Below, one piece after another: positions 48,001 to 60,000 of a DNA stretch of 64,000 nt. Where the stretch lies: assembly GCA_964534465.1 (NCBI GenBank), contig CAZHOB010000002.1, positions 29,725-93,724 of the forward strand, given 5' to 3'. The position numbers were made by a program. Source of the stretch: an uncultured Candidatus Saccharibacteria bacterium. GTDB taxonomy: Bacteria; Patescibacteriota; Minisyncoccia; Phycocordibacterales; UBA2100. The stretch's first letter is position 1. Each line of letters opens with the position of its first letter.

Positions 48001-51000
48001 CACTTTTTCCCGCTCGTTGTTCCGGGCGGACTGGTCGTCTTCGACGACTACGGTCAACGAGGTCACGGAGAATCAGACGCAGTCCATGAGTTTTTCAAAG
48101 GAACCAACTACAAGCTCCATATGCCTCAAATGGCACCAACGACATCGGCTTATATTGTGAAAGAAGGTCTGTAATTGATACGTGTCGCTCAGGGCTGATA
48201 CCTCGGCAATTGAGCAAGGAATTTCTTTTTTAAAAAACGCCTGTATAGTTGCCACTATGAGTGCAAAGTCGAAACTCGTGCTCGGCACGGCGCAGCTCGG
48301 ATCTAGCTATGGTATCGGCAACACGACCGGCCAGCCGTCGCGCGATGAGGCGTTCAAGATATTGGACAGGGCATACGATGGCGGTATCAATACGCTCGAC
48401 ACGGCGACTGCATACGGGAATTCAGAAGAGGTGATAGGTGTGTGGCTTTCTTCGCGAGACCGCGCAGATGTAGCCATTATCACGAAATTAAAGCCCAATC
48501 TTCTCGATGAGTACCCCGAATCGCCAATTATGGTCATTGAAAAAGAGCTCCACGGCTCATTATCGCGCCTGCAGCTGGACGCAGTTGACGGATATTTACT
48601 CCACGGGGCAAAGGATATGTATAAAGAGGGCGTGATGGAGGGCCTGCGAAATATAAAAGCTAAAGGCCTTGTAAGAAATATCGGTGTTTCTATATATGAC
48701 GAGGAAGATGCTCTTCATGCACTCGACCTCGGGATCGATTATATTCAGATCCCATACAACGCGCTCGATCAGCGTTTGGAGCAAACGGACTTTTTCAGTC
48801 GGGCAAAAAAAGCTGGCCTTACTGTGTTCGCGCGCAGTCCCTTACTGCAGGGTTTGCTGCTGATGACGCCGGAGAGCATACCCGCGCATCTCGAGCATGC
48901 GAAGGGGCACGTAGCTCGCTTCCAAGCGATAGCGCAGAGGTACGGCCTCAGTCCGTATGAAGCATCTCTCATATTCGTGCATCAGCAGCCGCATATCGAG
49001 CACATCGTATTTGGCGTCGAAACGCTTCCGCAGCTCGAGGATATCTTTCGAGTCGCAAAAATGGCCGAGGAAGGTTCGCCTGAGGATTTTTTGCAGGAAA
49101 TATCACAGGCATTCAAAAATGTGGACCGTGCAGTTGTAAATCCGAGTTTGTGGAACAAAAAAAAGATCTGAGACGCCTCGCCGCCGTAGTTATTATTCCG
49201 GGAAAGCGGCTTTTGTGAGACGTTGACGTCATCTTTTCGTATCGTTACTATCACCTTATGTTGACTGCAATTATCCAGGCTCGAGTAGCTTCCACGAGAC
49301 TCCCCGGAAAAGTGCTCAAAGAAGTCCTCGGAAAACCCCTGCTTTATTACCTTCTCGAGCGGCTTAAGAGGGTCAAGGGCATCGACCAAATAGTCGTCGC
49401 CACGACCACCAATGTGGCAGACGATACAATAGCGGCGTTTTGCAAAGATATTGATGTGCCGGTATATCGGGGCTCGGAAAACGATGTGCTTGCAAGATAT
49501 GCGGGAGCAGCAAAGGAATTCGGTGCCGATCCCGTAATGCGGCTTACGGGCGATTGCCCGCTATTGCCCGTGGAAGTGGTCGAAAGGGTCATTGCCGAAT
49601 TCAAGAGCGGCACATTTGATTATGTAGTTACGGGTCCGAGTTTTGTCGAAGGCTTTGATTGTGAGATCTTTTCGTCAAAAATGCTTGAGCTCTCGAATAA
49701 AAATGCGACAAAGCCATCCGAGCGCGAACATATAACACTCTATATGAGCGCCCACCCGGAGATCTGTAAAAAGCATGTGATAGAAAATACGCAGAATGAT
49801 GGTGGGTATCGCGTGACAGTGGATGAGCCGGTGGACTTTATCGTCGTAAAGGCGATCCTTGAGGAGTTGTATCCTAAAAATCCCGCATTTACCGGAGAGG
49901 ACGTGAAGCGATTCCTCGACGAGAATCCTGATATCAGAGCCATCAATAAAGATGTGGTGAGGAACGAAGGTCTCATCAGATCACTGAATGCGGAATCGTG
50001 ATATGAATCTCGAGAGGTAAGAGAACCGAAGGAAAATGGGTACCATGAATCGCACTGAGCGACTCCCTTGCGAAATTATTGTATGATTTGGTCATGTCTA
50101 AATTGTGGCTCTTTGTTGCAAAAAACGGCACCATCACATGAAAAAGGCGGTGATCATAACAGGCGTTTCTTCCGGACTCGGGCGGGCGATTTTTGACGCG
50201 CTTTTCGAGAAGGATATCCATATTTTTGCGATTTCCCGCAGATTTACTGCTGAACAATTTGAGTTGCAAAATGGACGCAAGAACATCACGCTCATCACGT
50301 GCGATCTGAGTCAGAACGAACAGGTGATGCAGTGCGCCGACACACTTATGAAGACACTACTGGATTTCAAGGAAGTCGCGTACATTAACAACGCATTTAC
50401 GATCGATCCGATCGGGTCGATAGGTGAGATTTCCGCCGATCAGATCCGCGATGCGATCCAGACCAATTCTACGAGCGCCATTGTTCTCATTAATGCGGTT
50501 TGCGCACTCAAAAAAGCCTCATCGCTCACCTTCATAGATATAACGAGCGGCGCAGCGAAGACGCCGATCGAGGGTTGGGCTGTGTACTGCGCTTCGAAAG
50601 CGATGATGAAAATGTTTTTTAGCGTACTCGCAAAACAGTCGAAGACGGATCCAAGAATTTCCGTCCACGAATTCGAGCCGGGCGTGATCGACACGAATAT
50701 GCAAAAAAAGATCCGCAGCGCGCAGTTTCCTTCCGTTCGGGTATTCAATATCCTCAAAGAGTCGGGCAAACTCCGTGATCCGCACGAAGTTGCGCAGGAA
50801 TTGATACAAAAATATCTTGGTGTATGAAGATCGCGATCCTCTCCGACATACACGGCAATTCAATAGCACTCAAGGTCGTTCTGAAGGAGATACACGGCAT
50901 GCACATAGAACACATCTTTGTGCTCGGCGACTTTGTCGGGTACTACTACCATCCGGATGAAGTCCTCGAAGCACTTTCGCATTTCAAGAAGACATTTGTC

Positions 51001-57000: not shown

Positions 57001-60000
57001 TGGTTCGTCACTATAGTGACACTGGCTTTATAGACCGGCCGGACTATAAGGAGGTGTATCTCATCCCATTGCATTTCGGCGTGAGCGACGAGTACTTCTC
57101 CAGGATCGTCAATAGTTTTCAAAAATGATCTTTGACTATTAGCCCAGCATTCATGTAATGTAGCCTCTATGGACGATAAAATAATTAAAAGTGAGCAAAA
57201 AAAATTGGTAGACAAGGCCGCGGCTGAATTCGGATCAGTTCACATCGCGGAAAATTTTGCCAAATATACTTCGAGACAAGAACTCAGTAGATTTTTGTTC
57301 CGGCACGATCTCTATAAAAAAATCATTCACACCAAGGGATCCATCGTTGAGTGCGGTGTATTTCAGGGGGGGGCTTGCTGTCGTGGGTAAAATTGTCCGA
57401 CATCCTAGAACCGACGGCATTCAACAGGCAGATTATTGGCTTTGACACATTTGAAGGTTTCCCGAGCGTCCACGCCAATGATAAGAGTACTCGAAAGGCA
57501 AAGGCCGGTGATGTTGCGTTTACAGGATTTGAGGACATCAAGAACGCGATCGCTTTTTCAGATAAGAATGCTCTCCTGCGTCCCAAACCAAAAGGGATCT
57601 TGGTAAAAGGGGATTTTATGGAAACGGCAGCGACGTTTCTCGAAAAAAATCAACATCTTATCATATCGCTCTTGTATTTGGATTTTGACATATACGAACC
57701 GACCAAAAAAGCTCTTGAACTTTTCCTTCCGCGCATGCATCGCGGATCAATAATTGGATTCGATGAGATAAATAACACCTCTTGGCCCGGCGAAACCCTC
57801 GCGGTCATCGAAAAGCTTAATATACGCGATATCGCAATAGAAAAGTTTGACTATGAACCGCACATGGCATATGCAGTGCTGAAATAGGAATTGAAGCTCG
57901 AATTTTTTGCTTTTTGTGATAGCGTGGCTCTATGAAGGGACTATTTGTGGTGCAGCGCCAGTTCGTCATCATGGGCCATCAGCTTGCGATCCTCCTCAAG
58001 GAGCAGGGTGTGGTTGATCAATTTTGTGCCTATATCCAGATCCGCGACGGATACAAATTACTTGCTTCCCAAAAAGACGTCACCTATTCATCCCTTTTGC
58101 TCGACGAGGATATCGTTAAACAAGCGTCGCATGAAAAGGTCGATCTCGAATATCTTCGCTCGCTAGAAAAGGATATCGGCACATTGTGGAAATACATTGA
58201 AGTCGATCGAATTATCCGCCACGGACAGGGCGTGAGGGAGTATCCCTACGATAGGTCGCCGTACACTCATGAGCAGATCCTGCAGATCGTCCAGACGATG
58301 TCGAAGCGGATAATTTCCATGCTCGATCAGGAAAAACCGGATTTCATGTACATGTATCAGCCGGGATTTCTGGGCGGTTATCTGGTATATGGCATCGCGA
58401 AAAAACGCGGGATCCCTGTTTTCCTGCAGGAGGGTCCTTCTGTCAAAGATCTTGTCGTACTGAGCGACACCTACAAGACGCTTACGGACGTGGATAAAGT
58501 TTTTCACGAAAATCTGAAAAAAGAACCGAATGAGATCATCAAATACGGCGAAGCTGCTGAATATGTGGATGCGTTCAGAAATAAACCGTTCGCATATTCT
58601 TCTATAGCGGGCTCGCGCGAAAAGCGTGGGCGTTTGCAGCAGTTCAATTTTTTGAAGTTCCGCAATATTTTTTTCTCGATCTACTTTAATTTTTTTCAGA
58701 CATTTCTTCGGTGGCTTGAGAGTGGGGAAAAAAAGACCGATTATTCCACGATCAACCCGTTCCTTCATCTCTACGATCGTGCTTTGCGCAAGGCGCGCAA
58801 TCTGATCGGCTTTTCCGATCTTTTGGACTCGTATGATCCCCTGGCCTCGTATGCGTATTTTCCGCTTCAACACGAGCCTGAACTGAACTTACTCCTCAAT
58901 GCGCCGTTCTCCTGTGACCAGATCGAAGTCGCGAAACGCATCGCGCGATCGTTGCCGGTGGGTATGTTTCTCTACGTGAAGGAACATCCTGATATGGTCC
59001 CGTATCGCCCACGCAGTTTTTACAAAATGTTGAAAAAGATACCAAATGTGCGATTGATAGATCCAGCAATATCGGGTTTTAAAATGGAAAAAAACGCGAC
59101 CCTGATCATGACTATCAGCGGTAGCGCAGGATGGGAAGGAGCGCTCCTCGGCAAGCCTGTCATCGCCTTTGGAGAAACTTTGAACAACACGCTATCCGGC
59201 GTCTATTATTCGAAAACGCCGGAAGATCTTGCTGGCCTTATAGAGCACGCACTCGAAAAAGGCGGGTGCGACCGTGAGGAGGTTGTTCGATATCTAGCCG
59301 CACTTCTCGAAGAAGGCGCGATCTCAAATTTCGGTTATCTCTGGGAAAATGAATACGACGTAGCAAAGAAAAAAGAAGGCCTTCGGGGCCTCGCTGAAGT
59401 GTTAGGCAAAAAGGTCCGCCTTTTGGCAAAATAGGATCTCATGAACAAAAAAGTCGCAGTCGTCATTCATCGAATAGAAGCCGTCGGTGGTGCGCAGCGG
59501 CTTGTATTGGATCAGATGCGGGAGTTGGACAGGCGCGGTATAGATGCGGAGCTTTTTGTATTAAATCGGAAATCGACCGAGGGGACATTGATACCGGTGC
59601 GATCCGTTCTCGATATACGGGGTATCTTTGCGCTTGCCAGAGCGCTGCGCGGACATGATGTCGTGCTCACGCACATGTGGTTTGCAAATACGGTCGGTCG
59701 TATCGCAGCTCTCATCGCTCGTGTGCCGATGATCGCGGCATTTGAGCTCGATTTCGTCAGGCCTGACGTGAAGACGCCAAAAATGCTGCTCGTGGACAAG
59801 ATCTTGCAGTATTTCTCTACGGTCATCGCGTGCTCACAGCAGACGCAAGATTCTCTTGCGGCGCACGGCATTCGATCGGTATTGGTCATCAATGGGCTCG
59901 ATTTCAAGCGCATACGCGATCTTCCTCCAGCGGATCTTTCCGCCTATGAAAGGCCCATATTCCTTGCGGCAAGTCGGCTCATACATCAGAAAGGTTTGGA

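Follow-up and report, generated by a model that had tools for sequence, protein, structure and literature searches.

A recurrent FemX-like/short DegT-like gene cassette as a candidate accessory module of a pseudaminic acid-type locus in an uncultured Saccharibacteria bacterium

We analysed a 64-kb stretch of DNA (hereafter the window) from contig CAZHOB010000002.1 of an uncultured Candidatus Saccharibacteria bacterium, the whole of which carries polysaccharide genes, and in particular the block of genes at positions 50138-57128. Our tentative reading, to which we give slightly less than an even chance, is that this block would form the accessory half of a locus for a nonulosonic acid (NulO) of the pseudaminic acid (Pse) type. 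In this reading, a FemX-like enzyme would aminoacylate an amine of the Pse pathway, and this step would be coupled to amino/keto exchange by enzymes dependent on pyridoxal 5′-phosphate (PLP) and to methylation. The core of the cassette consists of the FemX-like gene 53393-54391, the methyltransferase gene 54395-55126 on the minus strand, and one or two genes for short DegT-like PLP enzymes, which in the window are 55172-56164 and 56175-57128. Across phyla, the genes of the cassette show tight linkage with one another and with the methyltransferase gene, within Pse-type pathways. Purifying selection acts on two PLP enzymes and on one Fem-type transferase.

The first-pass annotation of this DNA had treated the block as a collection of decoration genes. 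Such decoration is not peculiar to this DNA, as the set of FemX-like, methyltransferase and short DegT-like genes recurs in dozens of genomes beside PseB, PseC and PseI. A scan of GTDB species representatives returned 46 loci with the family of 55172-56164, all 46 in metagenome-assembled genomes (MAGs). Most of these belong to Patescibacteria, while Thermodesulfobacteriota, Proteobacteria, Elusimicrobia, Bdellovibrionales, Acidobacteria, Bacteroidota, Dehalococcoidia and one Methanoperedens make up the others. The open reading frames (ORFs) of the loci were searched with the window proteins and with family profiles, and occurrences were counted within 10 kb of the short DegT-like gene. A FemX-like gene was present in 36 of the 46 loci, and a bona fide PseC, on top of which the short DegT-like gene is present, in 35. 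The HemL-like class-III aminotransferase (26/46), PseI (22/46), the cytidylyltransferase (21/46), PseB (20/46) and the aldo-keto reductase (AKR; 11/46) followed, and an ATP-grasp gene accompanied the short DegT-like gene in three. Close relatives are present in 38 loci, and in about 35 of these the FemX-like gene abuts the short DegT-like gene or lies no more than ∼1.7 kb (one to two genes) from it. Homologues of the second short DegT-like protein, 56175-57128, are rare: a word search found 22 clusters, and a full scan with a hidden Markov model found 253 cluster representatives at E ≤ 1e-30 among 1.84 billion.

The usual gene order across the loci is PseB-PseC-DegT-like-Fem. In the loci that we number L002 and L004, the order runs PseB, FemAB_IMCC1989-like, methyltransferase, PLP_IMCC1989, AKR, cytidylyltransferase, HemL-like aminotransferase and NeuB. 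These loci have the order Fem-like, methyltransferase, PLP_IMCC1989, the first and last of which correspond to TIGR04421 (FemAB_IMCC1989) and TIGR04422 (PLP_IMCC1989), two NCBIfam hypothetical equivalogs. Compared with such loci, the window adds a second and more DegT-like paralogue, 55172-56164. The Kaiserbacteria locus L007 reads Fem-like, methyltransferase, DegT-like, DegT-like, Capsule_synth, and also holds the AKR, cytidylyltransferase and HemL-like aminotransferase. L040 is a single 12-gene operon with PseB, PseC, a short-chain dehydrogenase/reductase (SDR), a metallophosphoesterase, an ATP-grasp, PseI, AKR, cytidylyltransferase, HemL-like aminotransferase, Fem, DegT-like and methyltransferase genes; its remaining ORFs matched no other window protein in a comparison made with the window proteins only, without a family scan for PseH, PseG or PseF. 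Relatives of methyltransferase 54395-55126 adjoin short DegT-like genes in L002-L004, L007, L008, L013, L024, L038 and L050-L053.

The FemX-like protein encoded by 53393-54391 (plus strand, 332 residues) could be assigned by fold comparison. Its AlphaFold2 model (pLDDT 96) gave W. viridescens FemX as the best Foldseek match (TM 0.70, E 5.6e-15), and the nine nearest solved structures comprised eight aminoacyl-tRNA-dependent transferases (FemX, FemA, Sbb17, MprF) and one protein of unknown function. The model thus presents the protein as a Fem-type tandem GNAT whose fold is closest to that of the Fem proteins, and the comparison did not lead to a non-transferase family. Only fold comparison resolved this identity, because PDB searches with the single sequence or with a 41-sequence profile did not reach FemX and stopped at RimI-type GNATs at E ∼1e-3. 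By its sequence, the protein belongs to a sister family of TIGR04421, with the match to this model restricted to residues 194-318.

Three features of the FemX-like family are in keeping with an enzyme of the Fem type. All 41 homologues have Phe313 and Lys314, which the model places near the C-terminus in the last helix of domain 2; by motif and position, this pair resembles the catalytic Lys305 of FemX and Phe328-Lys329 of DhpH-C (PMC12945691). In addition, the motif of the coenzyme A (CoA) pyrophosphate loop is degenerate (SEKYIGH, with the family consensus YVSH, as compared with QRQGLGR in RimI), and the CoA-binding-loop glycines are not conserved in the family, which has a conserved basic helix, RERYIRYHKKF, at residues 168-179. 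By analogy with the Fem proteins, we infer that aminoacyl-tRNA would be the donor. The acceptors of the relatives are UDP-MurNAc-pentapeptide for FemX of W. viridescens and an amino sugar for Sbb17/Orf11 of the streptothricin type (PMC12945691). A UDP- or CMP-linked amino sugar would therefore be a natural acceptor for 53393-54391, the FemX acceptor being UDP-linked and the Sbb17/Orf11 acceptor an amino sugar. The protein differs from the FemX/FemABX proteins (W. viridescens FemX, S. aureus FemX, FemA), Orf11/Sbb17 and DhpH-C in its low identity to them (only 12-13%), in always being partnered with a short DegT-like PLP enzyme, and in its location in a NulO locus, whereas FemX/Sbb17-type relatives reside in peptidoglycan or antibiotic clusters.

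Alternatively, the tandem GNAT could be an acyl-CoA-dependent N-acyltransferase that stands in for PseH, with the short DegT-like proteins acting as ordinary keto-sugar aminotransferases and no involvement of tRNA. The latter could then make a second amino sugar, for example one of the QuiNAc4N/bacillosamine type from the PseB product, or add a further amino group to the NulO. This explanation would fit the facts that 53393-54391 passes the cutoffs of PF00583 (Acetyltransf_1) and PF13480 (Acetyltransf_6) and not that of FemAB, that RimI came first in the PDB profile search, and that PseH was not detected among the scanned window proteins. The CoA P-loop glycines are, however, not conserved in the family, and the invariant Phe-Lys pair corresponds by motif and position to the catalytic pair of the Fem proteins and DhpH-C. 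On balance we consider this explanation unlikely. DegT enzymes classically aminate keto-sugars, and the best PDB matches of 55172-56164, Kdo8N and 2-deoxy-scyllo-inosose transaminases, are in line with such an activity.

The tandem genes 55172-56164 and 56175-57128 (both on the plus strand; 330 and 317 residues) had been proposed to be mutual paralogues. This was confirmed at the sequence level, since the two proteins share 22% identity over ∼320 columns (BLASTP, E 2e-12), and profile-profile comparison of their families with hhalign gave a probability of 99.9% and E 5e-32. The 55172-56164 protein scored 66.1 bits on PF01041 (cutoff 19.8), with a match that is not full-length and covers model positions 114-259 of 360 only. 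Searched against the PDB with phmmer, it retrieved DegT-type enzymes only, the best matches being the Kdo8N transaminase 5k8b (E 6.7e-11) and BtrR-type 2-deoxy-scyllo-inosose aminotransferases, and the PDB aminotransferase 9bgp aligned across residues 85-329. These alignments predict a fold-type-I aminotransferase fold. The 56175-57128 protein scored 83.7 bits on TIGR04422 (cutoff 75; model positions 22-311 of 315) and has a precomputed match to PF27889. Its AlphaFold2 model (pLDDT 93) had GDP-perosamine synthase, ArnB and WecE as top Foldseek matches (E 2.5e-12, TM ∼0.58), and nearly all of the top 50 were sugar aminotransferases, so that the modelled structure, too, is of fold type I. Neither the phmmer search for 55172-56164 nor the Foldseek search for 56175-57128 led to a non-PLP fold.

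The DegT-like PLP-lysine region that had been pointed out in both proteins is real. The motifs WSFSK146FFPSVVGG of 55172-56164 and IFSLPK150MIGSYGGG of 56175-57128 align to FSLHPVK180SITSAEGG of PseC with a two-residue deletion, such that K146 and K150 correspond to K180, and D119 and D124 to D151, of the window's own PseC. Among 38 homologues of 55172-56164, H94, Q95, E118, D119, K146, G153 and G154 are invariant; among 21 homologues of 56175-57128, the same holds for S50, R52, H105, E123, D124 and K150. The SG loop is invariant in both families. Since the Lys, the Asp and the SG motif are retained throughout, both families are under selection as PLP enzymes. An identity as a PLP dehydratase of the ColD/E1 type, with His in place of Lys, was rejected because the Lys is invariant in both.

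The short DegT-like proteins share the fold-type-I PLP fold, the Schiff-base Lys, the pyridine-binding Asp and the SG phosphate loop with PseC, ArnB, GDP-perosamine synthase and KdnA. They differ from the DegT sugar aminotransferases in the two-residue deletion just before the Lys and in having SG[K/R]S instead of SGT. Both are 50-60 residues shorter than PseC, mainly through internal deletions. The shortened N-termini that had been ascribed to the pair apply to 55172-56164, in which the SG motif is at residue 34, but not to 56175-57128, in which residue 30 is aligned with residue 32 of PseC. The N-termini were compared by hhalign, and a three-sequence MAFFT alignment misplaces the N-terminal SG motif.

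Based on these assignments, the following scheme can be proposed. PseB and PseC would generate a UDP-4-amino-4,6-dideoxy sugar, and the FemX-like enzyme would then form an amide on a free amino group, either of a UDP-sugar intermediate or of the finished NulO, with aminoacyl-tRNA as donor; the simplest acceptor would be the 4-amine from PseC. In direct coupling with the FemX-like step, the short DegT-like enzymes would exchange amino and keto groups by means of PLP. This exchange could precede acylation and create the amine to be acylated, as DhpH does, and KdnA in the case of Kdo8N. It could also follow acylation and oxidise the newly added residue at its alpha-amine to the keto form, which a reductase could convert to a hydroxyacyl group. 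The methyltransferases would then methylate the product. Donor, acceptor, order of steps and final product are inferred. A more far-reaching version of the scheme holds that a Pse intermediate is aminoacylated in a tRNA-dependent manner, and that a dedicated short DegT PLP enzyme, a reductase and a methyltransferase then remodel the residue to yield an N-aminoacyl or N-hydroxyacyl NulO of the lactyl, glyceroyl or glycolyl type. This version is possible, but we regard it as rather doubtful.

Several observations count against an aminoacylating cassette. The FemX-like protein fails the curated cutoffs of PF02388 (FemABX; 16 versus 24 bits) and TIGR04421 (46.2 versus 250), and the correspondence of F313-K314 to Lys305 of FemX is one of motif and position only. 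A search of the window for tRNA genes found none; Fem enzymes normally draw on housekeeping tRNAs. To our knowledge, no DegT-family enzyme acts on a peptide-like alpha-amine. A short DegT-like gene occurs without a detectable Fem-like gene in L014, L039 and L049-L053, and in the alphaproteobacterial loci L046, L048 and L054, the 10 kb around the pair are free of NulO genes. An ordinary GNAT or formyltransferase is also present in some related loci (L002, L004), and the Fem-like enzyme therefore need not replace PseH. Lastly, our literature search found no paper on the function of TIGR04421 or TIGR04422/PF27889.

The absence of a functional paper on these families in the literature searched is in agreement with the earlier suggestion that the block is a place for undescribed chemistry, which we find plausible. 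The related assertion that ATP-grasp and FemAB-type enzymes are known to make N-acetimidoyl, glyceroyl or aminoacyl-substituted NulOs found no backing in the literature (PMC5378307). According to this source, NulO-modifying enzymes are largely unknown, including those that install most non-acetyl N-substituents. The same paper describes the genes behind the N-acetimidoyl (Am) and glyceroyl (Gra) substitutions of T. forsythia as unknown and names pseA and ptmG as the Campylobacter Am genes (PMC5378307). Our literature search also found no paper linking Fem-like enzymes to NulOs. What appears to be new is a variant of the Pse-type pathway with a FemX-like/short-DegT cassette, whereas the superfamilies and the catalogued families TIGR04421 and TIGR04422/PF27889 are known.

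NulOs such as pseudaminic and legionaminic acids decorate flagella, capsules and lipopolysaccharides, and their N-acyl groups influence immune recognition and phage susceptibility. The cassette is a conserved and testable candidate for the chemistry of non-acetyl N-substituents, and it is concentrated in Patescibacteria (candidate phyla radiation), the surface glycans of which are essentially unstudied. If our reading is correct, the cassette would represent a previously undescribed tRNA-dependent NulO route that is widespread in Patescibacteria and other uncultured lineages. It would link the aminoacyl-tRNA pool of translation to the tailoring of surface glycans, and it might explain NulO N-acyl groups that lack known genes.

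The locus around the block contains part of the canonical Pse pathway (PseB, C, H, G, I, F). PseC (46348-47487, plus strand; TIGR03588, 461 bits, cutoff 423.5) and the pseudaminic acid synthase PseI (39128-40174, minus strand; TIGR03586, 488.9 bits, cutoff 340) pass the equivalog cutoffs, and the PseB-like 4,6-dehydratase (38109-39098, plus strand) stays just under its own (TIGR03589, 398.2 bits, cutoff 407.75). No match to TIGR03585 or TIGR03590, which would indicate PseH or PseG, was found among the proteins scanned at 31.8-59.4 kb. The SpsF/KdsB-like cytidylyltransferase (49258-50001, plus strand; PF02348, 104 bits) reached 28.5 bits on the PseF model TIGR03584, the cutoff of which is 205.7. 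For the proteins of 1-29 kb, and for the products of a methyltransferase, a GT9 and two GT4 genes located at 29.5-31.8 and 59.4-61.6 kb, the scan covered Pfam alone. Where PseH, PseG and PseF were not detected, the window has the cytidylyltransferase, an AKR (48182-49171, plus strand; PF00248, 137 bits), a HemL-like class-III aminotransferase (36731-38053) and the Fem/DegT-like cassette. Since PseH, PseG and PseF were not detected among the scanned window proteins, part of the block may replace core Pse steps instead of serving for decoration only. Should the cassette also take the place of PseH, PseG or PseF, CMP-activated Pse-type sugars would be accessible by a second route, which would be of use in chemoenzymatic synthesis.

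As a group of three, the AKR, the cytidylyltransferase and the HemL-like aminotransferase accompany the cassette; they occur together in more than 20 related loci, and in L009 (19335-20909) the cytidylyltransferase and AKR are fused. Similar combinations have been reported for NulO clusters, namely an SpsF-like::AKR fusion in Vibrio and a HemL-like aminotransferase, both noted without explanation; in the NulO cluster of L. pneumophila Sg6, a HemL-like aminotransferase lies beside a cytidylyltransferase and an aryl-alcohol dehydrogenase (PMC7371886, PMC3694923). No Fem/DegT-like gene was found in the published Legionella NulO gene list. The idea that the AKR is the reductase of the cassette was weakened by its fusion or adjacency to the cytidylyltransferase and by the occurrence of the cytidylyltransferase/HemL-like pair in Legionella without Fem/DegT-like genes.

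Every gene that the first-pass annotation had listed between 50138 and 57128 was found at or near the position given for it and matched the family named. Also, family scans upheld the view that the block consists entirely of tailoring-type families, none of which builds a sugar backbone. The block starts with an SDR of 229 residues (50138-50827, plus strand; PF00106, 110.7 bits), the nearest NCBIfam models of which are benzil reductase (NF005381, 165.6 bits) and sepiapterin reductase (TIGR01500, 101.4 bits), both with scores well below cutoff. A YfcE-family metallophosphoesterase of 231 residues (50824-51519, plus strand; PF12850, 107 bits; TIGR00040, 68.9 bits, cutoff 56.25 passed) follows. 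The next gene (51521-52471, plus strand) encodes an ATP-grasp ligase of 316 residues and the PylC/CPSase-like type (NF009402, 153 bits), which clears the Pfam gathering thresholds of PF15632 (46.5 versus 29.1 bits) and PF02655 (38.6 versus 23.2). Two ATP-grasp ligases had been counted in the block; both exist, but only 51521-52471 lies inside it. Its paralogue 41093-42130 (26% identity; BLASTP, E 4e-13) lies outside. The two expected methyltransferases, both dependent on S-adenosylmethionine (SAM), are present as well: one of 301 residues (52491-53396, plus strand; PF13489, 87.3 bits) and one of 243 residues (54395-55126; PF13649, PF08241), the latter to be corrected to the minus strand with its ATG at 55126. 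An independent gene caller run on a Logan contig of the same DNA returned identical proteins of 301 and 243 residues. A scan for promoters and terminators gave results not above the shuffled expectation, and operon boundaries are therefore not claimed.

The first three genes, 50138-52471, would constitute a second and rarer accessory cassette for ATP-dependent amide ligation and phosphoester hydrolysis. A relative of the SDR adjoins a metallophosphoesterase gene in L013, and a metallophosphoesterase gene directly upstream of an ATP-grasp gene is also seen in L015 and L040. This pair, found in three loci, is far rarer than the Fem/DegT pairing. Its gene content brings in a further explanation, modelled on capsule amidation in C. 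jejuni, where Cj1435-Cj1438 include an ATP-grasp amide ligase, the transaminase Cj1437, the decarboxylase Cj1436 and a phosphatase (PMC11800397). By that logic, the short DegT-like enzymes would make small phosphorylated amines, the ATP-grasps would join these to a sugar carboxylate, and the metallophosphoesterase or a HAD hydrolase would remove the phosphate. The window does hold two ATP-grasps, the HAD hydrolase 43730-44401 and the metallophosphoesterase beside PLP enzymes, the metallophosphoesterase/ATP-grasp pair appears again in L015 and L040, and the C. jejuni precedent is biochemically established (PMC11800397). Nevertheless, we deem this explanation improbable: across genomes it is the Fem-like gene (∼35/38 loci), and not an ATP-grasp (3/46), that is linked to the short DegT-like gene, and three genes separate the ATP-grasp from the DegT-like genes in the window. 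The resemblance of Cj1435-Cj1438 to the window genes at 40-44 kb and 50-52.5 kb is in domain composition alone, and Cj1435-Cj1438 have no Fem-like transferase. Similarly, the sfmABCDE flagellin-modification operon of S. oneidensis, with a NeuB-like protein, a thiamine pyrophosphate (TPP) enzyme, an SDR, a methyltransferase and an ATP-grasp (PMC3765264), resembles 39128-44401 plus 50-52.5 kb by domain content alone and has no Fem-like transferase. In the window, PseI (minus strand), a methyltransferase, the second ATP-grasp, an acetolactate-synthase-like TPP enzyme and the HAD hydrolase are grouped at 39128-44401.

Downstream of the short DegT-like pair lies a TylF-like O-methyltransferase gene (57169-57887, plus strand; PF05711) that is split by a frameshift near 57375-57390. 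Its first ORF, 57169-57390, terminates in ...IVECGVFQGG, and the continuation is found in another frame as ORF 57351-57887, in which the PF05711 match is confined to model positions 119-230. The split gene is either a pseudogene or the product of an assembly error. Unbroken TylF-like relatives adjoin short DegT-like genes in L024, L038 and L049. The GC content drops to 0.44-0.46 over 55-58 kb, as compared with about 0.50-0.55 in the flanking DNA, and this dip at 55000-58000 runs from the DegT-like pair through the broken TylF-like gene into the beginning of the Capsule_synth-like gene that follows. The closest homologues are in Patescibacteria MAGs, at 50-58% identity. Together, the composition and these homologues suggest that 55000-58000 was acquired horizontally.

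The same data could be taken to mean that the block is a mosaic of horizontally acquired and partly decaying genes without a coherent function in this organism, as the GC dip, the frameshifted TylF-like gene and the Patescibacteria MAG homologues would all be expected of such a mosaic. Yet the eight block genes are intact ORFs with conserved catalytic residues, as judged from ORF listing and family alignments, and the gene set and its local order are repeated in many phyla; moreover, the lone frameshift could be an assembly error. We therefore consider a mosaic without function highly improbable.

The Capsule_synth-like (KpsS/KpsC-type) protein of 500 residues encoded by 57932-59434 (plus strand) matched PF05159 with E 0.004, below the cutoff, and weakly (E 0.024) the glycosyltransferase family of T. 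forsythia BFO_1060. It has a homologue, scoring 664 bits, in Kaiserbacteria locus L007, where the gene immediately follows the short DegT-like pair. A second protein of this type, of 481 residues, is encoded at 35221-36666, and both are candidate CMP-NulO transferases.

Elsewhere in the window, the minus-strand gene 6954-9800 encodes a fusion of 948 residues in which carbamoyltransferase N- and C-terminal domains are combined with a SAM methyltransferase domain; judging from its domain content, sugars in other parts of the glycan may be O-carbamoylated or methylated. In the protein of 651 residues encoded at 1564-3519 (plus strand), a GT1-type glycosyltransferase domain is joined to N-terminal and central domains like those of UDP-glucose/GDP-mannose dehydrogenases. 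The minus-strand run 21118-26093 includes a transketolase that is split into an N-terminal part and the pyrimidine-binding plus C-terminal parts, a PfkB-like kinase fragment, a Zn-dependent alcohol dehydrogenase and two proteins without a Pfam match, and may be a separate sugar-precursor module.

Two groups of relatives of the short DegT-like proteins are to be added. Outside the source, the homologue nearest to 56175-57128 (64% identity) is encoded in L006 (Logan SRR7077442; 7722-9712), where its neighbours are radical SAM, GT9, 2-oxoglutarate-Fe oxygenase and carbamoyltransferase genes, and a protein of 313 residues without a Pfam match is encoded upstream; neither a Fem-like gene nor any NulO gene could be detected on this contig of 13.8 kb. 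L050-L053, from Methylobacter, Nitrosomonadales, Dehalococcoidia and Methanoperedens MAGs, carry distant short DegT-like relatives (∼25% identity) that score about equally on both family profiles. Each of these is preceded by a methyltransferase gene like 54395-55126, with no Fem-like gene and with a PseC-like gene nearby. A PseI-like gene lies near the short DegT-like gene in L050, L051 and L053, not in L052, and one of the four loci is archaeal.

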